Below are positions 1,397-26,517 of a DNA stretch of 52,808 bases, in pieces. The stretch's first letter is position 1; each line of letters starts with the position of its first letter. Source of the stretch: Polyangia bacterium (GTDB taxonomy: Bacteria; Myxococcota_A; Polyangia; Fen-1088); the NCBI GenBank assembly GCA_035544495.1, contig DATKEU010000418.1:1-52808 (forward strand), written 5' to 3'. The notes under the pieces were generated by a model. It was given only the letters and a program-made list of their open reading frames with translations, made no database searches and was not told where the DNA came from. The position numbers and the translations under genes are program-made.

Positions 1397-1397
1397 G

Positions 1398-7156: not shown

Positions 7157-7301
7157 GTTAGCCTCAACCCAGTGCCGGGCGGGGCCGATTTCCTTACGTC
7201 GTGGGACAGGGAAGATTTGATTCTGACCCGCCGCGGCGTCTTCGCCAGTCCAGCGTGCGGAAAATGAAAGGTCCGGGTCTTCTCCGGAGACGAGGCCACG
7301 G

Positions 7302-9161
7302 ATGATCCGCACCGGTTTCCCGGACCGCTGCGTCCGATGTGTGCTGACCTGCGCCGCCGGGCTGGCCGCGCTGGCCGCGCTGGTGTGGCCGGCGCCGGCC
7401 GCCGCGCAGGGCTTCACCATCAGCGCGCAGTCGGGCCTGGACACCGTGCGCGCCGTGCGCGCCGCCGACTGGTGGCTGAGCGGCGTCGGGCTCATCGATC
7501 TCGACGGTGACGGCGACCTGGACGTCTTCCTCAGCTCGCACGGCTCGTACGGCGCTCTGGCGGCCGTCAACGACGGCAAGGGACACTTCACGGTCGCCGC
7601 CGGCACCTACCCGGACACCGAGCTGCTCTTGCCCTGCGATCTGGACGAGGACGGCAAGATCGATTTCGCCGCGACCTACTCCGACGGCGGCGCGAAGTGG
7701 TGGCTGAACCGAAGCACGCCGGGCGGCATGCTGTCGTTCCTGGGCACCATGGTCACGCGCGACGGAGGCCAGGCGCGCCAGCAGGCTCTGGTCGACATCG
7801 ACGGCGACGGCAAGCTGGACTGGTTGCGCGGCGCGGGCGCCGGCGTGCTGTTCGATCTCGGCGACGGCAAGGGCGGCTTCGCGGCCGCCAGCCGCACGCT
7901 GGCCAACCCGGGCGGCGAGGAGATCGCCGTCATCCCGGTGGACATCGACGGCGACGGCGACGAGGACCTGCTGGTCAACTTCGGTCGCTACGACACCTAC
8001 GGCCCCAACGGAGCCTCGCGCCTGTACCGCAACGACGGCGGCGGCACGTTCACCAACGTGACCACCCAGGCGGGGCTTTACGAGATCGGCCTGGCGGTGA
8101 AGGGCGTGGGCGACTTCGACCAGGACGGCGACACGGACATCATCGCCCTCGAGAAGCTCGCCTTCCCGCACACCATCTTCCTGAACGACGGCAAGGGCAA
8201 CTTCACCCGCAAGGCCGGCGCCGTCGACGGGCCGACCGGCACGGCCGAGTACGGATCGTGGGGCCTGGCCGCGATGACCGATCTCGACAACGATGGCCTG
8301 CCCGACATCGTCGTCGACGGGCGCAACTACCTGCACGTGCTGCGCGGGACGGGCGGCGGGTCGTTCTCGTACGTCAACAAGACCTGGGGCGGCATCGTCG
8401 ACATCGCGGAGGCCTCCGTGGACAACGGCTTCTCCTTCGGCGACATCGACGGGGACGGCGACCTGGATCTGATCGGGTACAAGACCATCGACCCGCGGCG
8501 CGACCTGAACGTCTACGTCAACAATCTGCCCGCCCAGAACTGGATCAACGTGCGGCCCGTCGGCGTCAGCGGCAACAAGGCCGCCGTGGGCGCTCAGATT
8601 CGCGTCTACGCCGCCGGCGGCGATCAGCTGCTGTGGTTCGAGGAGGTGGTCTTGTACAACAAGCAGGTCCAGCAGGCCTATTACGCGCGCGGCGAGACCG
8701 AGCGCCATTACGGCCTGGGCGCGCGCGCCTCGGTGGACGTGACAGTGACCTTCTCCCCGTCGCACAAGCAGGTCCGACAAAACGGCGTCGCGGCGGGGAC
8801 CACCGTGCGCATCAGTGAGGACGGCGCTGGCGTCGTCGTGCCGCCGCCGACCCCGGTGGCGGACGCGGGCACGCCGCCAACTCCCGGCGACGGGAGCGGC
8901 GGTGCCGCCGGGACAGGCGGCGGTGGCTCCGGCGGGTCAGGACCGGGCACCGGCGACATGCCCGCGACCGGCGCGCCCGGAACAAGCTCCGGAACCGGTG
9001 GATCGGCGGCCCGCCCACCGCAAGCGACCGGGACCGTGACCGGCGGATGCGCTTTGGGCGCCAGCGCCCACCGACCCGGCGCGATCGCTCCGTTGGTGGG
9101 CGCGCTGGCGTTGCTAGGCCTTGCGGCCCCGCGGCCCGCCCGGCGCCGGAGGCGGCGATGA
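7302..9161 (+). CDS. FG-GAP/VCBS-repeat plus ASPIC/UnbV-domain (CRTAC1-like) surface protein with a MYXO-CTERM-like tail
   Basis: Signal 'CAAGLAALAALVWPAPAAAQG'. Repeated 'DLDGDGDLDV', 'DIDGDGKLDW', 'DIDGDGDEDL', 'DFDQDGDTDI', 'DLDNDGLPDI' and 'DIDGDGDLDL' Ca-binding FG-GAP/VCBS loops. The ASPIC block reads 'NWINVRPVGVSGNKAAVGAQIRVY...ERHYGLG'. A Gly/Ser/Thr/Pro linker leads to 'GGCALGASA...LVGALALLGLAAPRPARRRRRR' (Cys codon 9048-9050). Confidence 0.75.
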   Translation: MIRTGFPDRCVRCVLTCAAGLAALAALVWPAPAAAQGFTISAQSGLDTVRAVRAADWWLSGVGLIDLDGDGDLDVFLSSHGSYGALAAVNDGKGHFTVAAGTYPDTELLLPCDLDEDGKIDFAATYSDGGAKWWLNRSTPGGMLSFLGTMVTRDGGQARQQALVDIDGDGKLDWLRGAGAGVLFDLGDGKGGFAAASRTLANPGGEEIAVIPVDIDGDGDEDLLVNFGRYDTYGPNGASRLYRNDGGGTFTNVTTQAGLYEIGLAVKGVGDFDQDGDTDIIALEKLAFPHTIFLNDGKGNFTRKAGAVDGPTGTAEYGSWGLAAMTDLDNDGLPDIVVDGRNYLHVLRGTGGGSFSYVNKTWGGIVDIAEASVDNGFSFGDIDGDGDLDLIGYKTIDPRRDLNVYVNNLPAQNWINVRPVGVSGNKAAVGAQIRVYAAGGDQLLWFEEVVLYNKQVQQAYYARGETERHYGLGARASVDVTVTFSPSHKQVRQNGVAAGTTVRISEDGAGVVVPPPTPVADAGTPPTPGDGSGGAAGTGGGGSGGSGPGTGDMPATGAPGTSSGTGGSAARPPQATGTVTGGCALGASAHRPGAIAPLVGALALLGLAAPRPARRRRRR

Positions 9162-12837: not shown

Positions 12838-13024
12838 GCCGACCGAACCCCGCCCAGCGCTCACCACCCGCCTGACCGCGCGGTGGTCGTGCAAGTGCGC
12901 GAACGACCGAGGGAAGTCGTCATTGGCCCGACCCTGGCGGCGTTTTTAAATCGGCGGTCGGACCAATTGCCTTTTGATCACAACAGCTTGACCTATGTTA
13001 CCGGTATCGAGGTACATTAGGAAC

Positions 13025-14728
13025 ATGCGAGCAACGGCTCTTGGTCTGATGTTGATCGCAGCGGGTTGCTCCGGCGCGATCGGAGACTTTCCGAGCGGAC
13101 CCGGCTCTGAGCCTGGTGGCTCGGGGCCTGGCACCACGGGCGGCGGCGGTGGTCCGGTTGCGCCCGTCGGGCCCGGCGCCGAGATGCCCAGCCCGCGCCT
13201 GCTGCGACAGCTGACGCTCAGCGAGTACCGCAACACCGTCGGCGATCTGCTTCAGATCAGCAACCCCGACACGACCAATATTCCGGCCGACGTGCCCGTG
13301 CGCGGCTTCACCACCAATACCGCCAGCGCGTTCATCGATCAGAGCAACGTCGACCGCTACCAGTCGGTCGGCGGCGCCCTGGCCGACCGCGCGATCACGG
13401 AGTCCTTCGCGAAGCTGGTTCCCTGCCAGACGACGGACAGCGCCTGCGCCGGCAAGTTCGTCGAGACGTTCGGCCTGCGCGCCTTCCGCCGCCCGGTGAC
13501 CCCCGACGAGAAGACGCGCTACCTGGCGCTGTTCGATCCCACGCTGACCGGCGGCGACTTTCCGACCGGCGTCGGCCTGGTCATCAAGACCATGCTGATC
13601 TCGCCCTTTTTCCTGATGCGCAGCGAGCTCGGCGATCAGATGAACAACGGCCAGATCGTGTTGACGCCGTACGAAATCGCCAGCGCGCTGTCGTACGGTT
13701 ACACGGGCTCGATGCCCGACGACGCGCTCTTCGCCGCCGCGCAGAGCGGGGCGCTGGCGAGCAAGAGTGAGATCGAGACGCAGGCCCGCCGGTTGGTGGC
13801 GTCGGACCGCGGGCGGGCGCGCATCGCCGCCTTCGCCGGCGAGTGGATGGAGGCCTCGCGCGCGTTCGTCGCGACCAAGGATCCGATGACCTTCCCGGCG
13901 TTGAAGGACGCCGCGACCAGCGCCGCCATCGTCGACGCGATGAAGGCAGAGTCCGATGCCTTCTTCACCAGCGTCGCCTACGACGGGACGAAGAAGTGGG
14001 ACGAGCTGTTCTCGGCCAATTACACCTTCGCCAACGATCGCCTGGCGGCGTACTACGGGCTGCCGATGCCGGGGTCGCCGGACAAGGCCGTGAAGGTGAC
14101 GCTGCCGGCGGGATCGCCCCGCGGCGGGCTGCTGACGCTGGGGATGTTCCTGTTCGGCCACGCTCGCGCCGACCAGTCGTCGCCCACGCAGCGCGGGCAC
14201 GTCATCCGCGCCAACATCTTCTGCACCGACGTGGCGCCACCGCCGCCCGGCGTGGACGCCACCGTGAAGCCGGGCACGCCGGGCAACACCGGCCGCGAGC
14301 AGATCGAGGCGCTGACCGGATCGGGCAGCTGCAACGCCTGCCATAGCCTGATGAACCCCATCGGATATGGGCTGGAAGGCTTCGACGGCGCCGCGCAGGT
14401 GCGCACGATGGATCACGGGGAGATGGTCGACACCTCGGGCGTCATCAACGGCGTGTTCGCCCAGCCGCTCGCCTTCAACGGTCCTCGAGCGCTGTCGACG
14501 ATCGTCGCTGGCAACAAGGACGCGCAGGCCTGCCTGGCCAAGAACTATTACCGGTACGTGCGCGGGTTCGACCCGATACAGACCGGCGTCAGCGCGGACG
14601 GCAACGCCGTCGAGCTTTTGGGGCGGGACTTCGCCAGCGGCAACCTGGACATGACGGAGATGTTCGTGCGCGTGGCGCTGCAGAACTCGTTCACCGTTCG
14701 TCGGTCCGTGGAGGCTTTGAACCGATGA
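13025..14728 (+). CDS. DUF1592/DUF1587/DUF1588/DUF1585-family lipoprotein (full-length paralogue of 2..1396)
   Basis: ORF 12995 is trimmed to ATG 13025, giving the lipoprotein signal 'MRATALGLMLIAAGC' plus a Gly-rich tether. Family blocks include 'LRQLTLSEYRNTVGDLL', 'FGLRAFRRPVTPDE' and 'LISPFFLMRSE'. The C-terminus reads 'CNACHSLMNPIGYGLEGFDG', with CxxCH at 14330-14344. Confidence 0.7.
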   Translation: MRATALGLMLIAAGCSGAIGDFPSGPGSEPGGSGPGTTGGGGGPVAPVGPGAEMPSPRLLRQLTLSEYRNTVGDLLQISNPDTTNIPADVPVRGFTTNTASAFIDQSNVDRYQSVGGALADRAITESFAKLVPCQTTDSACAGKFVETFGLRAFRRPVTPDEKTRYLALFDPTLTGGDFPTGVGLVIKTMLISPFFLMRSELGDQMNNGQIVLTPYEIASALSYGYTGSMPDDALFAAAQSGALASKSEIETQARRLVASDRGRARIAAFAGEWMEASRAFVATKDPMTFPALKDAATSAAIVDAMKAESDAFFTSVAYDGTKKWDELFSANYTFANDRLAAYYGLPMPGSPDKAVKVTLPAGSPRGGLLTLGMFLFGHARADQSSPTQRGHVIRANIFCTDVAPPPPGVDATVKPGTPGNTGREQIEALTGSGSCNACHSLMNPIGYGLEGFDGAAQVRTMDHGEMVDTSGVINGVFAQPLAFNGPRALSTIVAGNKDAQACLAKNYYRYVRGFDPIQTGVSADGNAVELLGRDFASGNLDMTEMFVRVALQNSFTVRRSVEALNR

Positions 14729-16185
14729 CAAAGATCATCAGACGGCGGGGCATCCTGAAAGGCCTGGCGGCCAGCGGCCTCGCGGCGCCGCTGGGCCAGC
14801 TGTTCCGAATGCACACCGGACGCGCGGCGAGCGCGGCGCCGGTGCCGAAGGTGGTGTTCTTCTACACCCCGTGCGGCGTCGAGCTGCCGCTGTGGCACCC
14901 GACGCAGACCGGAACGACGTTCACGTTGCCGCGCCTGTCGGCGCCGCTGCAGCCGCTGGCATCGGAGTGCATCTTCATGGACGGCATCTCGATGGTGCCG
15001 CTGACCGATCACCAGGGCGGGTCGCAGCAGATGCTGGCCGGCGACGACAGGGACGTCAAGACGATCGACCTGCAGCTGGGAGATTTCCTGCAGCAGATGA
15101 CGCCGATCCGTTTTCTGGAGCTGGGCGTTCAATCGCGCATCAGCAAGGGCGGAACGCCCACGGTCCCGCACCCGCACTTCACGCGCGAGTCGCTGGCTCA
15201 CGAGATCTTCGCCGAGGACAACCCGCTGGCCGCCTTCGGTTCGACGTTCATGAGCGGCGCGACCAGCAGCACGCCGAGCACGACGCCCGACGCGATGGCG
15301 GCCGTGATGCGGCTGGCGAAGCAGCGCAAGAGCATGCTGGACATCGCCACCGCGGATCTCGGGTCGCTGTCCAGCAAGCTGCCGAACTCGGAGAAGAACA
15401 AGATCGCGTCGTACACCGACGCGATCCGGTCGCTGGAGATGCGGCTCACCGATCCGGCCAACCTGCCCAACACGGCGATGTGCACGGATTTCTCCAGCTT
15501 CAACCCGACCATGTTCACCGTCCCGCCGGTGGGCGATCCCAACCAGGCGAGCTATGAACAGACCGCCAGCCAGGGGACGGTCGCGGACCTGCAGATGGAG
15601 GTCGCGCGACTGGCGCTGGCCTGCGGCCGCACGCGCGTGGTGACCTTGCTGTACGGGCACACCAACGCGCACAACCCGATCCAGGGGCTGGGGCCGTTCG
15701 GCGTGCACGACGCTTCTCACTACAATGCCCCGCCCGGACAGCTGACGGGCAACGCCACGCCGGAGCAGGTCAACGCCAAGCTGACCGCCTGGCGCAACTA
15801 CCGCGAGTGGTACGCGCAGAAGCTGGCGCAGTTCGTGACGGCGATGAAGAACACACCCGATCCGATGGGCGGCTCGCTGCTGGACACGACGATCATCCTG
15901 CACTGCTCGGAGCTGGGCGACGGCGGCCCGCACAAGACCGATCGCGTGCCGTTCGTGTTCATCGGCGGCCGCGCCTATGGGTTCAAGCTGGGCCAGGCGC
16001 TGAACTTCAACGGCGCCGTGCCGGCGTACACCGCGGGCGCGCACAGCGGGCAGCGCTATATGTCGCACTCGCCGCTGCTGACCATCGTCGCGCAGAAGAT
16101 GGGCCTGCCGCTGACGGGCAAGTTCTTCGGGTTCTCCGGCCCGCAGGCACTGGACCCGGCTGGCCTGAACATCCTCTCCAGCTAG
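14725..16185 (+). CDS. DUF1552-family protein with twin-arginine signal (paralogue of 1398..2777)
   Basis: The ATG overlaps the upstream stop as ATGA (14725-14728). Tat-type signal 'IIRRRGILKGLAASGLAAPL'. It is collinear with 1398..2777. Confidence 0.75.
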   Translation: MTKIIRRRGILKGLAASGLAAPLGQLFRMHTGRAASAAPVPKVVFFYTPCGVELPLWHPTQTGTTFTLPRLSAPLQPLASECIFMDGISMVPLTDHQGGSQQMLAGDDRDVKTIDLQLGDFLQQMTPIRFLELGVQSRISKGGTPTVPHPHFTRESLAHEIFAEDNPLAAFGSTFMSGATSSTPSTTPDAMAAVMRLAKQRKSMLDIATADLGSLSSKLPNSEKNKIASYTDAIRSLEMRLTDPANLPNTAMCTDFSSFNPTMFTVPPVGDPNQASYEQTASQGTVADLQMEVARLALACGRTRVVTLLYGHTNAHNPIQGLGPFGVHDASHYNAPPGQLTGNATPEQVNAKLTAWRNYREWYAQKLAQFVTAMKNTPDPMGGSLLDTTIILHCSELGDGGPHKTDRVPFVFIGGRAYGFKLGQALNFNGAVPAYTAGAHSGQRYMSHSPLLTIVAQKMGLPLTGKFFGFSGPQALDPAGLNILSS

Positions 16186-16364: not shown

Positions 16365-16988
16365 ATGAAACGTCCCATCTTCGAGCTGTTTGTCGCCGCC
16401 CTTTGCCTGTCCCTGCCTTTGTCCCGCGCCGCCACCGCCGCCGATGACTTCAACCGGCTGCCCACCGTCAAGGGCGACGCGCCGAGCCCACTGCTGCTCC
16501 GGATCGTGAAGTACGAGGGATCCACCAACGGCTCGATCACCGTCGACGTCAAGAACCCCACCGGCCAGCCCCAGGATTTTTCGGCCAAAGGCGTCTACTT
16601 CGTCCCCCAGGGCAACGCCAACGACGCCCCCCAGCGCCTGGGCGCCGTCGGTCCCTTCAAGGTGCTCGGTGAACGCGGCGCCGAGCGGCGCGAAGAGATC
16701 ACCATCGCGCCGGGCGCAGTCGAGCGGATGGCCCTGGACGTCTACTGCATCGACTCGCACAGGGCGAGCCCGGGCCCGGCGACTTCGTTCCGCGTCGCCA
16801 AGGACCGCGTCCCCCCGGTGCTGATGCGGGCCATCGACAGCGACGCCACGCACGCGGCCAGCGCCTATGGAGGCGTGTCGGCGGCGCGGGCCAAAGCGGC
16901 AGTGCAATCGGAGGTCTGGAAGAACCGCGACAAGCAGTGGATCGAGCTCGACGGAGAGGGCCGGCAGGAGACCGGCAAGCGGCGCTGA
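16365..16988 (+). CDS. Secreted protein of unknown function (207 aa)
   Basis: ATG 16365 has GGAGG 5 nt upstream. Sec signal 'MKRPIFELFVAALCLSLPLSRAATA'. Third-position GC is high. No recognisable motif. Confidence 0.55.
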   Translation: MKRPIFELFVAALCLSLPLSRAATAADDFNRLPTVKGDAPSPLLLRIVKYEGSTNGSITVDVKNPTGQPQDFSAKGVYFVPQGNANDAPQRLGAVGPFKVLGERGAERREEITIAPGAVERMALDVYCIDSHRASPGPATSFRVAKDRVPPVLMRAIDSDATHAASAYGGVSAARAKAAVQSEVWKNRDKQWIELDGEGRQETGKRR

Positions 16989-17043
16989 CGGGTCGGCCCA
17001 CTTCCATCCGGCTGGTTAGTTCGCTATCGTCCGAACGGCGAGG

Positions 17044-18822
17044 ATGTGGAGTGAGCCGCGTTTTTCAATCACCGGGCTGGCGATCGTGCTGGCGGCCGTG
17101 GGTGCGCTTGGTTGCGGCAAGGGCTGGGGCGGGCGCTGCGCGGCCGGCGACGACTGTCTCTACTCGCGCGACGAGTGGACGCTGATCCAGTCGCTGGCCA
17201 ACGTATCGAAGGACCCGCCACCCGCCGACGATTCGAACGAGCTGCTCGCGCGCGTGCTCAACGGTGATGCGGGAGGCGTGGCGGGGACGGACCAGATCCG
17301 AGCCGTTTGGGACGGCGTCCAGGCGGCGAGCAGCTCCGACGAATTGCCAGCCATCGTCCGCCTCGGCTGGCGCCTCTATCACGATCCGCGATTCTCCGGC
17401 GACGGCAACACGCCCAAGGACTCTGTCGGACGCGAGACCCTCCCGCCGCGCGGCACCGGGCAGATTGGCGTCTCCTGCGCCTCCTGCCACGATCCGGCCC
17501 GCTATGGCGCGGATTTCACCTCGCTGCCGCCGAACGTATCGAACGGCGCCGGCTACTACGACGTCAACGGGCAGCAGACTCTGAACGTCGCCCGATTCTT
17601 CCCGGTCTATTACTGGAACGGGCGCGCCGATTCGCTGTGGTCGCAGGCCGCGCAGGTGATGGAGAGCGCGGTCTCGATGCACGGGCGCCGGGAGAAGACG
17701 CTGTGGCTGATCGCGCAGTGCTATTCGAACACCCTGGATTTCGTCCAGGCATTCGCCGACGAACCGGACATGCGGCCGTCAATCGATCACGTCACGATCG
17801 ACGAGATCACGGCGGCGGCCCCCTTCTTCGTCGTGCCGTCGCCGGCGATGGCCACGACCGTCGAATTCCAGAATAGCTACAGCCTGGCGCGGACCTGCAA
17901 TTCAAGGATCGCGAATGACCTGGCCGAGCGCGTGCATCGGAAGGTCGCCAAGGCGATCGCGGCGTACGAGTGGTTTCTGACCAGCGACGGCTCGCGCTTC
18001 GATCGCTTCGTCGCGGCCGGACCATCGTCAGCGCTGTTGACGGCGTCGGAAAGGCGCGGGCTCAAGCTGTTCGTCGGCCACGCGGGCTGCGTGAACTGTC
18101 ACAACACCAGCCTGTTCTCCGACCGCAAGTTCCACAACATCGGCGTGGGTCAGACCGGCGATCACGTGCCGACGGTGGCGGTCTGCACCAAGGGCCGGGA
18201 CTGCGACTGCAGCCCGACCGCGCCGCCTGGCGACGACGGGGGCGTGCCGGACGCGGGTGCGACAGGCGCCCCCGACAGCCTGGCCGTGGGCGGCAAGTGC
18301 CTGCCAGCGGGGGCCTATGCCGGTATGCAGAGGCTGCACGCGGACAACACCGTCGACAAGATGTCCCCTACCATCTTCCGCCGTTGCTCCGATCCCGGCG
18401 ATCCCCAGCAACGCTACGGCTGCCAGGTCGAGAACGGACCCAACGACTATCCCAACCCCGGCGTCGACCGCCCGCCGGCCCGCTGGCTGGGGGCGTGGCG
18501 CACGCCCAGCCTGCGCGACGTCGCCATGACCGCGCCATACATGCACGACGGGTCGCTGGAATCGCTCTCCGACGTGGTCTGGCACTATGACCAGGCCGCG
18601 GCCGGTGAGGGGATGGGGACATCCGAGCTGGCGCCGCTGAACCTCACCCAGCAAGATCGCGCGGATCTGGTGGCGTTCCTCGGCACGCTGACGGGACAAC
18701 CGGGCCCTTCGCTGCTCGTGTCTCCGCCCGACGCGGCGCCCAGCTGCCCGGCCGTCGCTGTCGACGCCGGTCCCAGTTGCGCAAACGACGCCGGCTCGGA
18801 CGCCGGGACGGACGGTCCGTGA
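17044..18822 (+). CDS. Di-haem cytochrome c peroxidase / MauG-family lipoprotein with a Cys-rich insertion
   Basis: There are two CxxCH motifs: 'CASCH' at 17475-17489 and 'CVNCH' at 18088-18102. Family boxes 'LFSDRKFHNIGV' and 'WRTPSLRDVAMTAPYMHDGS' are present. Lipoprotein signal 'LAAVGALGC'. Confidence 0.8.
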   Translation: MWSEPRFSITGLAIVLAAVGALGCGKGWGGRCAAGDDCLYSRDEWTLIQSLANVSKDPPPADDSNELLARVLNGDAGGVAGTDQIRAVWDGVQAASSSDELPAIVRLGWRLYHDPRFSGDGNTPKDSVGRETLPPRGTGQIGVSCASCHDPARYGADFTSLPPNVSNGAGYYDVNGQQTLNVARFFPVYYWNGRADSLWSQAAQVMESAVSMHGRREKTLWLIAQCYSNTLDFVQAFADEPDMRPSIDHVTIDEITAAAPFFVVPSPAMATTVEFQNSYSLARTCNSRIANDLAERVHRKVAKAIAAYEWFLTSDGSRFDRFVAAGPSSALLTASERRGLKLFVGHAGCVNCHNTSLFSDRKFHNIGVGQTGDHVPTVAVCTKGRDCDCSPTAPPGDDGGVPDAGATGAPDSLAVGGKCLPAGAYAGMQRLHADNTVDKMSPTIFRRCSDPGDPQQRYGCQVENGPNDYPNPGVDRPPARWLGAWRTPSLRDVAMTAPYMHDGSLESLSDVVWHYDQAAAGEGMGTSELAPLNLTQQDRADLVAFLGTLTGQPGPSLLVSPPDAAPSCPAVAVDAGPSCANDAGSDAGTDGP

Positions 18823-20183
18823 GGCGCCGGCCGACAGCGCCGTTGCCGGCCGGTCGCCCGACGGCGCTGGCCGTCGTGGCGGTTCTCATCGCGGCCGGCG
18901 CCGGGCGGGCGGCGCACGCGCAACGATCGCCGCCGCCCCTTCCACCGCCTGCTGCTCCGGCCTTCGCCGAGGATTCGACCCCGCCCGAGGAAGACCCGCT
19001 GGCGGCGCAGATCCGCCAGAACGAGGAGCTGGCGGCACGCCGCCGCCCGACGGTGACTTTGAACGGCTACGTCGACTTCGGGTTCTACGCCGTCGAGGGC
19101 GACGGCAGCGGCGTGCGCCAGGATGTGCTGCACACGTATCCTGGGTACCCGGGCTACGCGTGGGTGTTCCCGGGCGACCTGCTGGCACCCGCGATCAACA
19201 CGCGCGGCGAGGTGGCGAACCTGGGTGACCTGCCCGGCGTCGATCGCTATGACCCGATCCACTCCGGCGCGCCGGGCTTCATCGTCAACGAGCTCAACCT
19301 GCGGCTGCGCGCATCCCCGGTGCCCACCGCGATCATCACCGGCAGCTTGAACTTCACGCCCCGCACCGGCGGCAACTTCGCGCTGGGCGACATGTTCGAC
19401 GTCGATCTGGCGCAGCTGGAATGGCTGCCCACGGAATCGCAGCGCACGTCGATCTTCGTCGGCAAGATCGAGTCGGTGCTGGGGATCGAGTATCGCCAGC
19501 GCAAGTCCGACCAGCGCTTCGGCGTCACCCCGTCGCTGATCGCGCGCTATACCACCGGCACCGCGCTGGGGGTCAAGGTGCGCAGCAAGTTCGGCGACGA
19601 CGACTGGCTGGTGATCGCCGCCGCGCTGACCAATGGGTCGAACACCACGGAGCAGTTTTTCTTCTACGACGAGACCGCCCGCCACGCCTGGAAGACCGGC
19701 AGCGCGCGTCTCTCGGTCCGCCTGCCCCTGCCCTTCACGCTGGAGCTGGGCGCGTCGGGCAGCTACGGCGCCCAGGACCGCACCAGCAGCGATCAGCACC
19801 GGATGTGGTTCGCGGGGATCGACCTTCAGGCTCACGTTGGCCCGGTCGACGTGCTGGCGCAGTGGCTGACGGGCCGCGCGCCGGGCGACGTGACCGAGAA
19901 CGCCTACTCGCTGGACTTGCACGGCGGCGGATACGTCGAGGTCCACGCCATGCTGACGTCCTCGTGGGGCGTGCTGGGCAGCGTCGGCTATCGCAGCGCG
20001 GACATCACGCTGCCCACGACGCGGGCGTATCCCAGCCGGAACTGGCGCGGCACCGTCGGCGTGCGCTGGATGATCGACACCTGGGCGATATTGAAGGCAG
20101 AATATCTGCACAACGGCGAGTACGGCGACGTCCCCACCATCCCCGACGACGTCTTCACCAGCAGCCTGGTGCTGACCTATTGA
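18819..20183 (+). CDS. Porin-like outer-membrane beta-barrel protein (family not identified)
   Basis: GTG 18819 overlaps the peroxidase stop as GTGA (18819-18822). Signal 'RRRPTAPLPAGRPTALAVVAVLIAAGAGRAAHA'. Many short amphipathic strands are present, and the C-terminus is aromatic ('...FTSSLVLTY'). Confidence 0.5.
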   Translation: MRRRPTAPLPAGRPTALAVVAVLIAAGAGRAAHAQRSPPPLPPPAAPAFAEDSTPPEEDPLAAQIRQNEELAARRRPTVTLNGYVDFGFYAVEGDGSGVRQDVLHTYPGYPGYAWVFPGDLLAPAINTRGEVANLGDLPGVDRYDPIHSGAPGFIVNELNLRLRASPVPTAIITGSLNFTPRTGGNFALGDMFDVDLAQLEWLPTESQRTSIFVGKIESVLGIEYRQRKSDQRFGVTPSLIARYTTGTALGVKVRSKFGDDDWLVIAAALTNGSNTTEQFFFYDETARHAWKTGSARLSVRLPLPFTLELGASGSYGAQDRTSSDQHRMWFAGIDLQAHVGPVDVLAQWLTGRAPGDVTENAYSLDLHGGGYVEVHAMLTSSWGVLGSVGYRSADITLPTTRAYPSRNWRGTVGVRWMIDTWAILKAEYLHNGEYGDVPTIPDDVFTSSLVLTY

Positions 20184-20200
20184 ACCCGAAAGGACCACGG

Positions 20201-21109
20201 ATGAAACATCGGCGCTGGATCGGGGGGCTGTCGCTGCTGGCCTGGCTGGCCTCGCCCCTGGCGCCGGCGCAGGCCGCGGACGCCGCGCCCACCGCCGCCG
20301 ACATCACGCGCCTGGATGGGGAGATCGCGCGCCTGCAACAGGAGCTGCGCGACCAGCGCCAGCTGGTGCTGCAGCTGATGCAGATGCAGGAAGCCTTGAT
20401 GCACTACCTGCACGCCGGGGGGCCCCCGCCAGGACCGCTGCCGTCCGTGCCCGGCGCGGCCCCCTCCGCGACGCCGCCATCGGGACCGGGCGTGGCCAAG
20501 GCGGGAGCGCCCGACCGGGCCGCCCTCAATCCGACCGCCTCCGTCACGGGCCGGATCCAGATCAGCGGGAAATTTCCCGCCGAGGCGTACGTTTACCTGG
20601 AGGGACCCCGTGCCGTCAGCGCCCACCCTCCCACCATCGAGATCAAGCAGAAAGACCGCCAGTTCGTGCCGGCCGTGGCGGTGGTGCCGCTGGGGGCGCA
20701 CGTGCTGTTCCCCAACCAGGACCTCATCCTTCACAACGTCTTCTCCAACACGCCCGGCGACGCGTTCGACGCTGGACCGGTCAAGGCCGGACAGACGCCG
20801 AAGCCGGTCACGCTGCTCAAACCCGGGCACGTCGAGATCTTTTGCAACATCCACTCGCGCATGCGGGCGGACGTGCTGGTGGTGCCGAACGCGCACTATA
20901 CGCGGGTGCGCCCCGATGGGACCTTTCACCTGCCCGGCGTTCCGGTCGGCAGCCGCCGCATCGTCCTGTGGGCCCCCGACATCAAGCCTGTCGCGCAGAC
21001 GGTGGAGGTATCGCCCGACGGTGCCACCGTGAACCTGACGGCCGAGCGGCGGCCCTCGTCGCCGCACACCAACAAGCAAGGGGGCGCCTACGGCTCGTAT
21101 GAGGACTGA
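20201..21109 (+). CDS. Periplasmic cupredoxin-like (amicyanin-type ligand pattern) protein with an N-terminal coiled coil and a C-terminal CarboxypepD_reg-like domain
   Basis: Sec signal 'MKHRRWIGGLSLLAWLASPLAPAQA'. Coiled coil 'ITRLDGEIARLQQELRDQRQLVLQLMQMQ'. 'VLFPNQDLILHNVFS' and 'HVEIFCNIHSRM' give His ... Cys-x2-His-x2-Met, as in amicyanin 'PHNV ... CTPHPFM'. A beta-sandwich follows ('VRPDGTFHLPGVPVGSRRIVLWAP'). Confidence 0.65.
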   Translation: MKHRRWIGGLSLLAWLASPLAPAQAADAAPTAADITRLDGEIARLQQELRDQRQLVLQLMQMQEALMHYLHAGGPPPGPLPSVPGAAPSATPPSGPGVAKAGAPDRAALNPTASVTGRIQISGKFPAEAYVYLEGPRAVSAHPPTIEIKQKDRQFVPAVAVVPLGAHVLFPNQDLILHNVFSNTPGDAFDAGPVKAGQTPKPVTLLKPGHVEIFCNIHSRMRADVLVVPNAHYTRVRPDGTFHLPGVPVGSRRIVLWAPDIKPVAQTVEVSPDGATVNLTAERRPSSPHTNKQGGAYGSYED

Positions 21110-23165
21110 CGGCGCGCGCCCCTCGCCGCTGCGATACGCGGTGATCTTGGCCGGCCTGGGGCTGGTGGGCGTGGGCCTGTGGCAACTGGCAGCCCGGCGC
21201 CCGCCCCCGGTCGACGTCGAGAGCGAGGCGGCCGAGGTTCGGACGCGCGTCGAGCACGCCCTGCGCGCGGCGGCCGCTGGTCTCGAGCCCGCCGCCCGGA
21301 CCGCCGCCGGCCTTCCGGAGCTGCGCTCTGCCTGGAAGATGGGCGCCGATCGGACGACGTTTCAGGACCTGATCGACAACGAGGATTGGTGGTCGCCGTA
21401 CCGCTCCGGCTTCACGCTCTCCGCCATCGTCACCGACGGCGGCGTGGTGGCGACGCGCGGGGCCCACGTCAGCGACGCCAGCGCCAGCGCGCTGGTCACG
21501 GAGGCGCGGGCGCGCGGCGTGGCGAGCGGCGTGGTCGACAGCGCGGAGGGCCGGGCGTTCATCAGCGCGGCCGCGCGCCTGGCGCCGGGCAAGGCCGGCA
21601 ACGACCAGGCGACCGGCGCCCTTCCGGTCGTGTTGCTGGGCGCGCCGCTGGATCAGGCCGTCCTGCAGCGCGCGGCGGGCGAGACCGGTGACGTCGTCGG
21701 CCTGTCGAATGGCGCCGCGCTGATAGCGGTCAGTGGTCCATCGGCGGCGCGCGCCCTGGCCGAGCCGTTGATCGGACACGAGCGCGACGGCCCGCGGTCG
21801 CTAGCCGACGGGCGGATCGCCGCCGTTTGGCAGCTGGGCCAGCGCGCGTGGCTGATCGCCGTCTCGCCGCCCTCTGCAGCGGCGCCGCGCGACCTGGGCG
21901 GCTTGTGGCTGGCGCTGGCCGGCGCCGCGATGGCGGTGGCGGCGGCGCTGCTCCGCCGGAGGCCGGCGCAGGAGACACCCGAAGCAGGCGCGCCGGTGCC
22001 TGGCCCGGAGCCTTCGGAGAGCTCCTGGCCCGCGCAACGCTCGTCGTCGGTGCCGACCTCGTCCGGCCGCGCGGCCGCGGCGCGGCCAGTCTCCGAGACG
22101 CGAGCGCTGCCGACCGCCCTGGCCAACGAAGACAACCGGGATAGCGGCGGCGACCGGGCGAGCCCCTCCTCGGTGGCCCTGGCGGCCCAGGAGCCGGCGG
22201 CGTCCGGCGGCCCGATCCGCATGGGCCGGTATCGCCTGATCGAACGCATCGGCGAGGGCGGCATGGCCGAGATCTTCTTCGCCGCCGCCTACGGCGCCGA
22301 GAACTTCGTGCGGCACTTCGTGGTCAAGCGGATGCACCCGCACCTGTCCGGCAACCGCGAAGTCGTCAACCAGTTCATCGACGAGGCGCGGTTGCAGGCG
22401 GGCCTGGTGCATTCGAACATCGTGCCCGTGTTCGACTTCGGCAAGGCCGGCCAGGAGTACTACCTGGCCCTGGAGTACATCCACGGCCGGGATCTCGGTC
22501 GCATCGTGCAACGGCACGTCGAGCTGCGCGGCGTGCCTCTGCCGGACGCCATCGCCTTCTACATCGTGCACGAGGTGCTGGACGCGCTGGCCTTCGCGCA
22601 CGCGCAGACCGGCCCCGACGGACGGCCGATGGAGATCGTCCACCGCGACGTCGCGCCCGGCAACATCCTGATCTCGTACCGCGGCGAGGTGAAGTTGACC
22701 GACTTCGGGATCGCCAAGGCCGAACGCCGGGTCAGCCGCACCGAGGTCGGGATGGTCAAGGGCAACGCCAGCTTCATGTCGCCGGAGCAGGCGCGCGGCG
22801 AGATCGTCGACGCGCGCAGCGACGTCTTTTCGGCCGGGCTCGTGCTGTTCTACGCGCTGACCGGGAGGTTCTTCTATCACGGCGAGACCACGCTGAACCG
22901 GCTGATGCGCGCCGCGGTCGGCCCGGCCACGGAGCAGTTCCAGCACATCGAGCAGCTCTCGCAGATGGCCGGCAACATCCTCCGGCGCGCGCTGGCCATC
23001 GACAGCAGCCAGCGCTTCGCCACCGCCGACGCCTTCAAGCGCGATCTGGCCCCGTACGTCGGCGCCGGGACGCGCCGCGAGCTGGCCGACCTGATGGACG
23101 CGCTGTTCCCGACGTCGCAGCGGCGCGATCTGCGCGCGCAGCCCGAACAGCCGACCACGCGCTGA
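21099..23165 (+). CDS. Receptor-type Hanks Ser/Thr protein kinase: TM, extracytoplasmic domain, TM, linker, kinase
   Basis: ATG 21099 overlaps the cupredoxin gene by 11 nt. TM1 is 'YAVILAGLGLVGVGLWQL' and TM2 is 'LGGLWLALAGAAMAVAAALL'. Kinase motifs are 'IGEGGMAEIF', 'FVVKRM', 'HRDVAPGNIL', 'LTDFGIAK' and 'SFMSPEQ'. Confidence 0.85.
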   Translation: MRTDGARPSPLRYAVILAGLGLVGVGLWQLAARRPPPVDVESEAAEVRTRVEHALRAAAAGLEPAARTAAGLPELRSAWKMGADRTTFQDLIDNEDWWSPYRSGFTLSAIVTDGGVVATRGAHVSDASASALVTEARARGVASGVVDSAEGRAFISAAARLAPGKAGNDQATGALPVVLLGAPLDQAVLQRAAGETGDVVGLSNGAALIAVSGPSAARALAEPLIGHERDGPRSLADGRIAAVWQLGQRAWLIAVSPPSAAAPRDLGGLWLALAGAAMAVAAALLRRRPAQETPEAGAPVPGPEPSESSWPAQRSSSVPTSSGRAAAARPVSETRALPTALANEDNRDSGGDRASPSSVALAAQEPAASGGPIRMGRYRLIERIGEGGMAEIFFAAAYGAENFVRHFVVKRMHPHLSGNREVVNQFIDEARLQAGLVHSNIVPVFDFGKAGQEYYLALEYIHGRDLGRIVQRHVELRGVPLPDAIAFYIVHEVLDALAFAHAQTGPDGRPMEIVHRDVAPGNILISYRGEVKLTDFGIAKAERRVSRTEVGMVKGNASFMSPEQARGEIVDARSDVFSAGLVLFYALTGRFFYHGETTLNRLMRAAVGPATEQFQHIEQLSQMAGNILRRALAIDSSQRFATADAFKRDLAPYVGAGTRRELADLMDALFPTSQRRDLRAQPEQPTTR

Positions 23166-23174
23166 CGACCGCGC

Positions 23175-25556
23175 TCAGTTGCCGGTGATCGTCACCGTGT
23201 CGGTCACCATCTTGCCGTTCACCATCGCCGTCGCCTGCAGCGTGTTGGCGCCCGCGCCCAGCATGACACCGGGCCAGATGAAGATGTGGTCGGTCGCCGT
23301 CTTCGCCGGCTGCGCCGTGCCGTTCACGGTCAGGTTGGCCGCCGTTCCGTTCGAGTAGACCTTGACCTGGTACATCCCGGCCGGCCGCGTCGCCCAGCGC
23401 CGTTCGGTGATGTACACGAACGGCTCCGACGACCAGTTCGCCTTGTAGAAGAAGAAGGCGTCCTTCTTCGTCTTGCGGTCGTACGTCACCAGGCCCTTGT
23501 CGTTGCGGCCGGGCGTGTCGCCCTCGTTGCGGCTGTCGACGGCGAAGTCGAACAGGTTCCACAGCAGCGATCCCCACAAGAAAGGCCGCGTGCTGATCGC
23601 CTTCCAGTGAATCTCGTGGAGCAGGCACTGGTACTCCTCGGAGTGATCCATCACCTTGGGAGTGGCCGTGTGGATGGTGATGCCGGCGCCGGCGCCGTAC
23701 TCGCTGATCCCGAGCGGCCGCCCCGCCACCGCGTGGGCCGCGTCGACGTCGCCCGCGAACTGCGCCGCCGTGCCGCCGTACCAGCCAAAGTAGCGGTTGA
23801 TGCCCAAGAGATTGGTCGTCTTGGTGATCGCCCCGTTGGGGGCGTGGTTGGTCGCCAGCGTCGTCGGCCGCGACGGGTCCTCCGTGTGGGCCAGCGTGGC
23901 CATGTCGGTCATCAGCGGGACCACGGGCGCGCCGTCGGCCACCTCGTTGCTGAGGCTCCACATCACGATCGCCGGGTGGTTGGCGCTCTGGCGGATGAGC
24001 TCGGTCAGCTGTTGCTTGGCGTTGTTGGCGAAGGCCGCGCCCGCGGTGACGGAGTTCACCACCGGCACCTCCGCCCACACGATCACGCCGTTGCGATCGC
24101 ACAGGTCGTAGAAATGCTGGGCGTGCTGATAGTGCGCCAGGCGCAGCGCCGTCGCGCCCAGATCGCGCACGATGGCCATGTCCTCGTCGAGATCGGCGTC
24201 CGTGACCGCCCAGCCCTTGTTCAGCCGATCCTGGTGCTTGTTGGCGCCGTAGAGGCCCAGGTGCGCGCCGTTCAGCGAGAAGCCGGTGTTCTCGTCGAAG
24301 GTGAAGAACCGCAGGCCCAGCGGCTCCTCGACACCGTCGACGACGGCGCCGCCGACCTTGACGTCGACCTGCAGCCGGTAAAGGTACGGATCAGCCAGGC
24401 CGTTCCACAGGTGCGGGTTGGCGAACGTCAGGTTCACGGTCGCGTCGGTCGTGGCCCCCGCCGCCACCATCACGTCAGCGCTGCCCATCTGCGCGACGCT
24501 GCCGTCGGCGGCCACCGCGCGCACCGCGACGGTGGCCGTGGCCGCCGCGGCGCCGGCGTTGGTCACCGACGCGCGCACGGCCAGGTTCGCGCTCTGCTTG
24601 CTGACGTTGCTGGGCGTGCCCAGCACGCCCGACGAGCCGAAGTGGTCCAGGTCCAGGTGAACCGGGTCCACGCTGACCACGCGCGCCTGCCGATAGAGCC
24701 CGCCGAAGAAGGTGAAGTCCGCCGACACGGGGGGAATATTCGCCGACAGCGCGGCGGCGTTGCTGACCTGCACGGCGACGACGTTGTCGGCGCCGATCTT
24801 CAGCTTGTCGGTGACGTCGAAACGAAAGCGGGCGAAGCCGCCCTGGTGCTGCCCCGCCATCATGCCGTTGACGAACACGGTCGTGGCGATGTTGGCGCCG
24901 TCGAACTCGACGTATAGGCGCCGGCCGGCCTCGGCGGCGGGGATCATGACGTGCGTCCGGTACCAGCCGATGCCGCGGTAGTAATTGCTGCCGCCGTCCT
25001 GGCCGTCCATGTTGTTCCAGGTGTGCGGCAGCGAGGTGGCCGTCCAGGCGCTGTCGTCGAAGGCCGTCGCCTGCGCGCCGGCGACGTCCATCCTGATGAA
25101 CTTCCACCCGTCGGTGAGGGCGATGGTCCGCCGCGAGGTGGTCTCGGGCGGGACGGACACCGGTACGTCGGCGCCTGCGTCCGGGGGGCCTCCGTCCAGG
25201 GCAGGCGCGCCGCCGCTGCCAGGCCCCACGTTGTTGCCGCCACTGCCGCCGACGGCGTTGCCGCCAGCGCCACCCTCCACGTTGTTGCCGCCGCTGCCGG
25301 GCGCCACGTTGTCGCCGCCGCTGCCGCCGGCGGCGTTGCCACCGCCGCTGCCACTGCCACTGCCGCCCGCGCCTCCGCCGCCCGCGCCCCCGCTGCCGCC
25401 GCCCATCGTTGCTCCGGCGCCGCCCGAGCCCCCGCCGCTGGAATTGCTGCTGTCGCCGCCACACGCCAAGAACCCCGCGACCCCCAGCAACGCAGCCCAC
25501 CCGCCGACCGCCCGGACCCGCACCCGCAGCCGCACCGATCGAAGATTCGCCATCAT
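23175..25556 (-). CDS. Glycoside hydrolase family 2 lipoprotein (beta-galactosidase / beta-mannosidase / beta-glucuronidase type)
   Basis: ORF 23175..26105 is trimmed to ATG 25556, giving the lipoprotein signal 'MMANLRSVRLRVRVRAVGGWAALLGVAGFLAC' and an ~80-aa Gly-rich tether. The GH2 N-domain reads 'WTATSLPHTWN...YYRGIGWYRTHV...LYVEFDGANIATTVFVNGMMAGQHQGGFARFRFDVT'. The TIM barrel has 'HPAIVMWSLSNEV' (acid/base region) and 'PLGISEYGAGA' (nucleophile region). Confidence 0.85.
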   Translation of the reverse strand: MMANLRSVRLRVRVRAVGGWAALLGVAGFLACGGDSSNSSGGGSGGAGATMGGGSGGAGGGGAGGSGSGSGGGNAAGGSGGDNVAPGSGGNNVEGGAGGNAVGGSGGNNVGPGSGGAPALDGGPPDAGADVPVSVPPETTSRRTIALTDGWKFIRMDVAGAQATAFDDSAWTATSLPHTWNNMDGQDGGSNYYRGIGWYRTHVMIPAAEAGRRLYVEFDGANIATTVFVNGMMAGQHQGGFARFRFDVTDKLKIGADNVVAVQVSNAAALSANIPPVSADFTFFGGLYRQARVVSVDPVHLDLDHFGSSGVLGTPSNVSKQSANLAVRASVTNAGAAAATATVAVRAVAADGSVAQMGSADVMVAAGATTDATVNLTFANPHLWNGLADPYLYRLQVDVKVGGAVVDGVEEPLGLRFFTFDENTGFSLNGAHLGLYGANKHQDRLNKGWAVTDADLDEDMAIVRDLGATALRLAHYQHAQHFYDLCDRNGVIVWAEVPVVNSVTAGAAFANNAKQQLTELIRQSANHPAIVMWSLSNEVADGAPVVPLMTDMATLAHTEDPSRPTTLATNHAPNGAITKTTNLLGINRYFGWYGGTAAQFAGDVDAAHAVAGRPLGISEYGAGAGITIHTATPKVMDHSEEYQCLLHEIHWKAISTRPFLWGSLLWNLFDFAVDSRNEGDTPGRNDKGLVTYDRKTKKDAFFFYKANWSSEPFVYITERRWATRPAGMYQVKVYSNGTAANLTVNGTAQPAKTATDHIFIWPGVMLGAGANTLQATAMVNGKMVTDTVTITGN

Positions 25557-25764
25557 GGTCCCCCTCGAGCTGTTTAGAGTGTCTGAGGCCTTCGAAATCT
25601 TTCGCAACCCCAACGACGAGCGACCGGGACCTTCCTGCAGCCCGGCGCGCCGGTGCAGCAAATGACGGGCCTTCCTTAGCATGGCGCGTACAAGAGGGGA
25701 TAGGTTCGGCGCGTCGGGCTTTTGGCCATGGTCATGCCCGGCGGATTGGGTATTATCGCCGGCC

Positions 25765-26517
25765 ATGCAGTACCTCGGCCGCGGGCAGACGAGGGGCCTC
25801 GGTTTCGTGCTCGCCGGCTGTCTGTTGATGGTCGGTTCCGCATGTAGCTCCACCAGCAGCGAGAGCCCGAAGACCTCGGGCAGCGGCGGCGGAGGTGGGG
25901 CGCCGGGCACGGGTGGCGCGGCCGGAATGGGCAGCGGGGGCACCCCCTCCACCGGCGGTAACAGCGGCAGCGGCGGCAGCGTCGGCCCTGGTCCCGGCGA
26001 CGCCAGCGCCGACCAGGGCCCGGAGGTCGCCAGCGGCGGAGACGCCGCCAGCGATCCGCCGGGCGCGAACGTGGAGGTCAATCCCACCAGCGCGAACCTT
26101 TTCATGAACGCGGATTTCGCGACGGGTCTTCAGGGCTGGCAGACCACTGTCGAGCTCAAAGGCGATTCGATCATGAAGTCGGGGGCGGGCACGATCCTGA
26201 TTCACGGTGACGACGCCGTCGCCGCGGAGCGCGCGCTGGATCTGTTCCAGACGCAGATGGCGAACGGCAAGCCGTACCTGGTCTCGTTCGAGTTCGTGCG
26301 CCGCAACGCCCAGGGCACCCGTCCCGCTCAGGTGTACTGCCAGCAGTCGGACGGGGCGAAGACGGTCTATGGGCTGTCCACCTGCACCGTGACCAACGTC
26401 AAGGCGACCTGTCAGGCGACCTGCGCGCCTCCCGCCGGCGCCATGGTGAGCTTCGGGATTCACGCGGGCCAGAGCTTCCTCGACTTCTACGTCGACATGG
26501 CCAGCCTGCGGCAGTGA
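25765..26517 (+). CDS. Lipoprotein with a CBM4/9/22-like jelly-roll domain
   Basis: ORF 25681 is trimmed to ATG 25765, giving 'MQYLGRGQTRGLGFVLAGC' (lipobox LAGC) and a Gly-rich tether. The C-terminal ~140 aa begin 'NLFMNADFATGLQGWQ', a typical CBM_4_9-type opening. The assignment is tentative. Confidence 0.5.
   Translation: MQYLGRGQTRGLGFVLAGCLLMVGSACSSTSSESPKTSGSGGGGGAPGTGGAAGMGSGGTPSTGGNSGSGGSVGPGPGDASADQGPEVASGGDAASDPPGANVEVNPTSANLFMNADFATGLQGWQTTVELKGDSIMKSGAGTILIHGDDAVAAERALDLFQTQMANGKPYLVSFEFVRRNAQGTRPAQVYCQQSDGAKTVYGLSTCTVTNVKATCQATCAPPAGAMVSFGIHAGQSFLDFYVDMASLRQ

Follow-up and report, generated by a model that had tools for sequence, protein, structure and literature searches.

What does a receptor Ser/Thr kinase respond to when its gene overlaps that of a putative periplasmic copper protein? 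This question is raised by a 52.8-kb contig of an uncultured Polyangia bacterium (Myxococcota) from soil, whose 52,808 nucleotides are the window analyzed here. A sequence-only reading of the window had singled out five same-strand genes, labelled A to E in the following, which encode a secreted protein of 207 aa (A), a CCP/MauG-type di-haem lipoprotein (B), a porin-like barrel (C), a cupredoxin-like protein (D) and a kinase (E), and had proposed that they form an envelope redox or copper module signaling through Ser/Thr phosphorylation. Our answer, to which we give about an even chance, is that B, C, D and E constitute a self-contained, envelope-spanning cassette in which D acts as a redox- or copper-state co-sensor for E and in which the state of D is set by a haem partner. 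As a more tentative generalization, MauL-like cupredoxins might be widespread periplasmic co-sensors that couple the redox chemistry of a haem partner to dCache/LuxQ-type receptors with Ser/Thr phosphorylation, cyclic nucleotide or cyclic di-GMP (c-di-GMP) outputs.

All five open reading frames (ORFs) were recovered on the plus strand exactly where they had been placed. Their third-position GC of 0.86-0.93 is coding-like, on a contig that has a GC content of ~70% throughout and in which a scan for promoters and terminators gave no informative signal. The junctions were likewise exact: the stop codon of B and the start codon of C share a GTGA, a 17-nt gap with an AAGGA ahead of the start codon separates C from D, and D and E overlap by 11 nt. 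This last overlap is identical in 10 other loci. Judged from these overlapping or close junctions alone, B, C, D and E are probably co-transcribed. The family matches that the sequence-only reading had anticipated were also obtained, namely CCP_MauG for B, Cupredoxin_1 and CarboxypepD_reg (both weak) for D, and Pkinase for E. Its inclusion of gene A did not hold. The product of A has no match in Pfam or NCBIfam and no counterpart among 116 related loci, and the unit therefore comprises four genes and not five. Gene A is a lineage-specific orphan just upstream of the module.

The 116 related loci were found by scanning with an alignment of D, using one genome per species (36 loci) and then JGI metagenomes (80 loci). 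Neighbors were counted in the core group by tblastn with the proteins of the contig, and the denominators are the loci with enough sequence. C directly precedes D in 64/67 loci, D is directly followed by a sensor-kinase in 53/61, and a CCP_MauG gene is within reach in 48/50. Altogether, the cassette is shared by ~100 related genomes. Thus, the gene-order survey that had been suggested revealed a strongly conserved order of peroxidase-like gene, barrel, cupredoxin and kinase, and on these counts we rejected chance adjacency. An all-against-all clustering of the flanking ORFs disclosed no other shared flanking family. The di-haem gene is co-directional in 33 loci and divergent in 15, and the divergent genes form a separate subclade with the signature FWDGR...QALxPPEG and ~32% identity to B. 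Two CCP_MauG lineages therefore seem to have been recruited to one C-D-E core. Loci with a di-haem gene on the opposite strand beside C are L009, L010, L012-L015, L021 and ~10 metagenome loci (loci are cited by our own numbers).

The exceptions to the common order are informative as well. In L002, L016 and L030 the kinase gene has moved upstream of B and its domain order is reversed, so that the kinase domain comes first, then one transmembrane helix (TM), and at the C-terminus a periplasmic domain in which the D..TFxDL...EDWWxP motif of E recurs. In Archangium (L029) a kinase and a separate 302-aa membrane protein precede B-C-D, and this membrane protein resembles the sensor of E, albeit marginally (hhalign E 3.7e-5). 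A TPR kinase precedes B in a Myxococcaceae metagenome-assembled genome (MAG; L035). Consequently, the linkage survives permutation of both genes and domains.

Protein D is secreted. Behind its signal peptide come a long helix and a Pro/Ala linker that is disordered in the model; a CarboxypepD_reg-like sandwich then harbors the cupredoxin as an insertion, and the C-terminal tail is conserved. By itself, the D sequence of the contig stays below the Cupredoxin_1 cut-off (20.6 bits; cut-off 27) and its CarboxypepD_reg match is also weak, while a distant relative in L108 passes that of PF00127 (22.3 bits; cut-off 21.2). The AlphaFold2 (AF2) model of D has a mean predicted local distance difference test score (pLDDT) of 81, with values >90 in the folded parts, and consists of a 40-residue helix and a beta domain. 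Its top Foldseek matches are amicyanin (1id2), plastocyanin (1bxu) and pseudoazurin (probability 1.0; target-normalized TM-score 0.67-0.78). Neither the 57 close nor the 8 cross-phylum sequences deviate at the four candidate type-1 copper ligands, His178, Cys215, His218 and Met221. These show the Cys-x2-His-x2-Met spacing of amicyanin and align in hidden Markov model and profile comparisons with the ligands of amicyanin and of the nitrite-reductase cupredoxin domain 9cck. The sequence-only reading had named a missing His/Cys/His/Met site as the finding that would undo it; on the predicted cupredoxin fold this set is complete and invariant. D is, on the strength of its profile and model, an amicyanin-like cupredoxin related to MauL and a predicted copper binder. 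In the tail, H289, N291, K292, G294, Y297, S299 and Y300 are invariant (57 sequences). The family is large, with 6,934 cluster representatives at 50% identity for E<=1e-3 and 2,610 for E<=1e-10.

Protein E is predicted to start in the cytoplasm and to comprise TM1, a periplasmic sensor, TM2, a low-complexity linker and a Hanks kinase domain. As had been proposed, the sensor lies between two transmembrane helices: hydropathy places hydrophobic segments at residues ~13-33 and ~266-288, and the region between them is confidently modelled. When the first 300 residues were modelled with AF2 using 47 orthologues, a pLDDT of 91.7 was reached; in the model, a long helix and two alpha/beta modules lie between TM1 and TM2. 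The best Foldseek matches of the sensor are LuxQ (2hj9/3c30), the CHASE4 domains 8wct/8z84 (PA2072/IsmP) and the dCache domain 7k5n (probability 1.0; target-normalized TM-score 0.44-0.52). No Pfam family covers residues 34-265 of E, and one orthologue (P0221) has a precomputed CHASE4 match. Orthologues were collected with a full-length kinase search, as a query with the Ala-rich, low-complexity sensor alone gave one match; at least 408 kinases of the E type were found at E<=1e-60. The sensor carries the motif D84-x2-T-x2-D-L-x3-E-D-W-W-x3-R, with D84, T87, D90, E95, W97/W98 and R102 conserved. No conserved His, Cys or Met was found in it among the orthologues, which speaks against the sensor being a copper binder itself. 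The kinase domain (124 bits; Pkinase cut-off 31.7) appears intact, with the glycine-rich loop at G385 (GxGxxG), K410, H515-R-D, D535-F-G and S561-P-E all conserved in orthologues.

Further support for a link between D and the receptor comes from the distant relatives of D. These keep the H...C-N-I-H-x2-M signature, and in other phyla they always adjoin a dCache/LuxQ-type receptor, whatever the output domain. In a group of soil metagenome loci (L106-L116) D is followed by a sensor-HAMP-kinase with weak CHASE4 and dCache_3 matches in the sensor. Counting these loci together with L033 and L034, a kinase was found within 2.5 kb in 10/11 of those with room downstream. In L034, a Verrucomicrobia MAG, a 319-aa protein without an assigned family stands between D and the kinase, and in L036 D is followed by a HAMP-adenylate/guanylate cyclase. 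No haem gene adjoins D in the L108 group, and D and receptor are still linked there. In L108 itself, the sole case inspected, a divergently transcribed gene encodes a barrel-like signal-peptide protein ending in ...AAGYRF. Plus-strand ORFs upstream of D in L108 and L110 were dismissed as antisense artefacts, the real gene of L108 being on the minus strand.

On plasmids and chromids of Burkholderia, Caballeronia, Comamonas and Novosphingobium, a D relative is annotated by the Prokaryotic Genome Annotation Pipeline (PGAP) as "methylamine utilization protein". In all 6/6 proteobacterial two-domain relatives inspected (H1, H2, H4, H7, H11, H15) a dCache_3-HAMP-GGDEF-EAL protein is encoded immediately downstream. 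A DUF3034 protein and a group 1 truncated haemoglobin are encoded beside the D-like gene in 5/6 of these cases; in Novosphingobium (L120) this pair is divergently transcribed, and the Comamonas copy has DUF4394 in place of DUF3034 and no globin. In L117 the DUF3034 protein and the globin both have signal peptides, and the DUF3034 protein ends in an aromatic residue, which is barrel-like. The complete set of DUF3034, globin, D-like and dCache_3-HAMP-GGDEF-EAL genes occupies positions 3572-7899 of L117 and is also present in L119, L120, L121 and L124. It appears to be an uncharacterized case of a periplasmic globin wired to c-di-GMP signaling. Distant relatives linked to kinases or cyclases have retained the tail of D, which the EAL-linked ones lack. 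Comparisons by hhalign of the E sensor and C barrel profiles with the L036 cyclase, the L034 ORFs, the L110 sensor and the L108 barrel yielded nothing significant. Since D and a receptor are linked across phyla while the other parts differ, we conclude that the cupredoxin-receptor pair is the constant. Around it, as far as gene neighborhoods indicate, one haem partner, barrel family or output domain can take the place of another.

We consider it about evenly balanced whether D is indeed the co-sensor of E. In such a mechanism E would not read the stimulus itself, because its sensor lacks conserved metal-ligand side chains. Instead, E would read the state of D, in the way LuxQ relies on LuxP. 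This state could be Cu(I) versus Cu(II), or copper-free versus copper-loaded, and it would be set by B, a predicted MauG-type His/Tyr di-haem lipoprotein, through reaction with H2O2 or O2. C might admit the external stimulus or tether D under the outer membrane. A change in D would then pass through TM2 to the kinase domain and result in phosphorylation of cytoplasmic targets. What the data show are the genes present, their folds and ligand signatures, the conserved linkage and the exchange of outputs and haem partners; we infer the physical contacts, the direction of electron flow and the stimulus.

The proposal draws support from the confident sensor model, whose closest match, LuxQ, signals via a partner protein. 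The invariable pairing of D relatives with dCache/LuxQ-type receptors likewise strengthens the earlier suggestion of a redox or copper module in the envelope with output through a receptor Ser/Thr kinase, a suggestion that stays inferential as a reading of function. Several observations weigh against it. A cupredoxin hardly differs between its Cu(I) and Cu(II) forms, so that a reading of the state of D is not easily explained; its C-terminal His ligand might flip, in the manner of amicyanin. The sensor of E and the proteobacterial dCache_3 domain of L117 are only weakly similar by sequence (hhalign probability 22%, E 1e-3). A role as passive pore does not explain why C is so highly conserved. 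No copper or oxidative-stress genes were found near the module, including CopA, Cus, multicopper oxidase, Sco and PCuAC genes; for the same reason, the cassette appears self-contained. A mirror-tree comparison of 22 loci with all parts gave correlations of the B, C, D and E-sensor distance matrices of r 0.86-0.94, highest for C and D, and of r ~0.67 for each of the four against the E kinase domain, values that are confounded by shared phylogeny and non-independent pairs. Such co-variation would agree with B, C, D and the sensor interacting as a complex in the envelope. Finally, the putative His/Tyr signature of B is typical of the protein-oxidizing enzymes MauG and MbnH, and would fit a maturation function at least as well as sensing.

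This last point requires a closer look at B. As the sequence-only reading had maintained, it is a lipoprotein of the CCP/MauG type, a clear member of the CCP_MauG superfamily (PF03150, 79 bits, 7e-22; cut-off 25.6). It has two CxxCH motifs and a lipobox (GALG-C) whose Cys is kept in essentially all orthologues with an N-terminus. The assignment as a canonical peroxidase did not stand. Tyr515 of B falls on the axial haem ligand Tyr294 of MauG in an ungapped phmmer alignment (MauG 262-296) and on the corresponding Tyr of MbnH (6e1c). It is invariant in 28 orthologues of both subclades, whereas canonical cytochrome c peroxidases (CCPs) have Leu at this position. The Met ligand of the bacterial enzymes (bCCPs) aligns with a Met in the B of the contig, but 27 orthologues have W, T, V, S, I or other residues instead. 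The best NCBIfam matches, MauG TIGR03791 (123 bits) and MbnH TIGR04039 (100 bits), remain far below their cut-offs of 443.85 and 362.85, respectively, and the C-terminal domain of B is most similar to MbnH 6e1c. Neither mau genes (mauA/mauB) in the contig or the related loci nor an MbnP partner beside B were found, its neighbors being the BBP2 barrel and the cupredoxin. Given the invariant MauG-type Tyr and the non-conserved bCCP Met, we conclude that B is predicted to represent a distinct MauG/MbnH/BthA-like clade and not a canonical peroxidase. A Cys-rich insertion of ~90 residues (residues ~380-470), located between the second CxxCH motif and the C-terminal haem-ligand region, varies among orthologues, and the structures of MauG, MbnH and CCP lack it.

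These features allow for a different function of the module, in which B together with H2O2 or O2 would oxidize side chains of D (in the His/Lys/Tyr tail or at a Trp) or of C and thereby generate a cofactor or a cross-link. The product would be an enzyme or a copper-handling protein, and the kinase would only regulate it or report on it. Such a maturation system is in line not only with the Tyr515 alignment but also with the inter-haem Trp, which is invariant within (Y/F)W(N/D)GR (YWNGR in the contig copy), and with a Gln conserved at +10. The invariant C-terminal tail of D, rich in His, Lys and Tyr, would offer suitable targets. Moreover, the substrate of known MauG-family enzymes is the product of a neighboring gene, and the kynurenine of the copper protein MbnP is formed by MbnH (PMC11951088). 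On the other side, D already possesses a complete canonical set of type-1 ligands and needs no new one. The link between D and the receptor is kept even where the haem partner is a truncated globin, as in Proteobacteria, or where no haem gene is adjacent, as in the L108 group, and hence the chemistry of B is not essential to the D-receptor pair. In addition, a Tyr ligand does not preclude peroxidase activity, since the Tyr-ligated family member BthA turns over H2O2 as a catalytic peroxidase (PMC6405878). The paper gives a purple acid phosphatase, and not a cupredoxin-like partner, as the gene neighbor of BthA (PMC6405878). Taken together, maturation is unlikely in our judgment and ranks first among the alternatives. 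The notion that B and D form a pair of peroxidase and electron donor is one of two live readings, the other being that B modifies a protein.

The maturation reading also gains from the nearest precedent of the B-D pair, which is MauG-MauL and not, as had been supposed, CCP and pseudoazurin. On a plasmid of Indioceanicola profundi (L123, 3034-4384) a 108-aa "hypothetical protein" is encoded directly after MauG, in the MauL position of a genuine mau cluster, and is 30% identical to D (tblastn E 3e-7, plasmid collection). This MauL is a one-domain relative of D in which C-W-I-H-P-S-I-R-M replaces C-N-I-H-x2-M. Both systems thus place a Tyr-ligand MauG-type di-haem enzyme, as predicted for B, beside a small cupredoxin of the D family, and MauL and D have the FPN/H-x-(V/L)-F-S and C-x-I-H motifs in common. 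However, no methylamine dehydrogenase, amicyanin or mauFEDJMN genes accompany B-C-D-E, D has the CarboxypepD_reg sandwich, helix and tail in addition, and the module adds a barrel and a kinase. Because MauG and MauL adjoin each other in a genuine mau cluster, the pairing of B and D seems to be old, a point that counts for the co-sensor mechanism as well.

Protein C is the most conserved member of the module. While the contig copy gave a weak Porin_4 match only and stayed below the reporting limit for BBP2, 23/26 of its orthologues match the OmpL-like porin family BBP2 (PF07642; best E 3.7e-8). It has a signal peptide and, near the N-terminus, a short segment that looks helical, and its C-terminus has an aromatic last residue (SLVLTY; ...SLVL(S/T)(Y/F) in the family). 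The earlier assignment as a porin-like barrel agrees with these features. A comparison of its profile with the PDB gave no meaningful match.

Another possibility is that the cassette senses or acquires copper. C would admit the metal, D would bind it in the periplasm, the kinase would read the loading of D, and B would oxidize Cu(I) or recycle D. The invariant copper ligands in D and the lack of metal ligands in the sensor of E are both compatible with such a function. Mbn operons encode MbnT, MbnP and MbnH, and the combination of barrel, copper protein and MauG-like enzyme mirrors this set (for the MbnH-MbnP chemistry see PMC11951088). The likeness to MbnH-MbnP(-MbnT) and to MopE/CorA-type copper proteins extends to the MauG-like di-haem enzyme with a periplasmic copper protein and, for Mbn operons, to the outer-membrane barrel. 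Unlike D, though, MbnP is not a cupredoxin and needs the kynurenine made by MbnH; MbnT is a TonB-dependent transporter, unlike the BBP2 porin C; and the Mbn systems have no Ser/Thr kinase. Type-1 sites are electron-transfer sites and normally loaded permanently, the copper genes mentioned above are missing from the neighborhood, and in the proteobacterial version the presence of a globin makes O2, NO or peroxide a likelier stimulus than copper. We regard copper occupancy as rather improbable and place it behind maturation.

A further interpretation would be plain detoxification, with B as peroxidase, D as its electron donor, C as an ordinary porin and the kinase adjacent but functionally unlinked. 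Pseudoazurin and lipid-modified azurin (Laz) are examples of cupredoxins that donate electrons to bCCPs, and the neisserial CCP is a lipoprotein, as B is predicted to be. Both Paracoccus CCP-pseudoazurin and Neisseria CCP-Laz resemble the B-D pair in combining a di-haem protein of the CCP_MauG fold, with two CxxCH motifs and the inter-haem Trp, with a blue-copper protein. They differ in that their high-potential haem has His/Met ligands, of which the Met is not conserved in B, and in that neither a barrel nor a kinase is linked to them. The kinase linkage outlasts gene permutation, domain permutation and the divergence of lineages, the 11-nt overlap of D and E is conserved, and D relatives are tied to receptors even without a peroxidase. 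The conservation data thus disfavor detoxification, which we hold to be very improbable and the last of the three alternatives.

Returning to D as co-sensor, the best-known parallels are LuxP-LuxQ, NspS-MbaA, PruR-DcpA and YfiB-YfiR-YfiN, in which a periplasmic receptor domain of the double-PAS type is controlled by a separately encoded periplasmic protein. An additional likeness, an extra outer-membrane component, is reported for YfiBNR (PMC2837407). The partners in these systems are solute-binding proteins or YfiR and not a copper protein such as the putative partner D, and their outputs are a histidine kinase or c-di-GMP enzymes, while E is a Hanks kinase. Closest in overall logic is the proteobacterial set described above, which likewise combines a barrel-like protein, a haem protein, a D-like protein and a double-Cache receptor. 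It departs from the module in its globin, its different barrel family, a D-like protein without helix and tail, its c-di-GMP turnover and the marginal similarity of the sensors. None of the systems compared here combines these parts. The module would be a case of transmembrane sensing assisted by a partner, in which a copper protein as that partner is without precedent and a MauG-type enzyme serves as accessory. The sequence-only reading had named no characterized system of this composition, and we too found no published description of the module in the literature searched, which omits most subscription journals.

Table 1. Positions of the module, its parts and neighboring genes in the 52.8-kb window.
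Feature	Position	Strand	Remarks
Gene A	16365-16988	+	207 aa, signal peptide, third-position GC 0.88
Gene B	17044-18822	+	592-aa predicted lipoprotein, CCP_MauG superfamily, MauG/MbnH-like
B Cys24 (lipobox)	17113-17115	+	
B haem motif 1, C145-A-S-C-H149	17476-17490	+	
B haem motif 2, C349-V-N-C-H353	18088-18102	+	
B Cys-rich insertion	18180-18460		
B Tyr515	18586-18588	+	Equivalent of MauG axial haem ligand Tyr294, by alignment
B/C overlap	18819-18822		GTGA
Gene C	18819-20183	+	454-aa BBP2/OmpL-like predicted outer-membrane beta-barrel; GTG start overlapping the B stop
C/D gap	20184-20200		17 nt
Gene D	20201-21109	+	302-aa secreted protein
D long helix, residues 32-71	20294-20413	+	Single helix, candidate coiled coil; AF2 pLDDT 90-96
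D cupredoxin domain, residues ~140-228	20618-20884	+	Pfam Cupredoxin_1 140-227
D candidate copper ligands His178, Cys215, His218, Met221	20732-20863	+	Type-1 site
D C-terminal tail	21062-21106	+	P-H-x-N-K-x-G-x-x-Y-G-S-Y-E-D
D/E overlap	21099-21109		11 nt
Gene E	21099-23165	+	688-aa predicted receptor Ser/Thr kinase
E periplasmic sensor, residues 34-265	21198-21893	+	LuxQ/CHASE4-like double PAS/Cache fold (model)
E kinase domain, residues 378-647	22230-23039	+	Pkinase 8.9e-36
DUF1592/1588/1595-DUF1552 pair, first copy	26-2777	+	
Sigma factor gene	6575-7606	-	Extracytoplasmic function type
DUF1592/1588/1595-DUF1552 pair, second copy	12995-16185	+	
Glycosidase gene	23175-26105	-	GH2 family

Other genes of the window deserve brief mention. 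Two copies of a gene pair, each with a DUF1592/1588/1595-family gene and a DUF1552 (HXXSHH) gene, encode secreted proteins; the genes of the second pair overlap by 4 nt and those of the first are separated by a 1-nt gap. The GH2-family glycosidase has an N-terminal extension of ~300 residues that is Gly/Ser/Ala- and Pro-rich, and its annotated start may be too far upstream. In the sigma factor, regions 2 and 4 are confined to the C-terminal half; ~170 extra N-terminal residues reflect either a miscalled start or an unusual extension.

Myxobacteria have many receptor Ser/Thr kinases, hardly any of which has been assigned an input. For one kinase family with its several hundred members, the module described here provides a conserved, defined and testable candidate input apparatus. 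Pairing of one cupredoxin with kinases, cyclases and GGDEF-EAL proteins is a classic comparative-genomics signature of a dedicated sensory partner, and the pattern extends to culturable Burkholderia, Caballeronia, Comamonas and Novosphingobium, which are readily manipulated genetically. MauG-type enzymes, whose known roles had been confined to making cofactors, are placed in a signaling context, and mauL, an orphan gene for 30 years, is linked to a large protein family. The module looks like a candidate for an undescribed route of sensing oxidants or copper outside the cytoplasm. If this is true, the redox state of a copper protein would be a new input currency for bacterial transmembrane signaling, and there would be a lead on the role of MauL.

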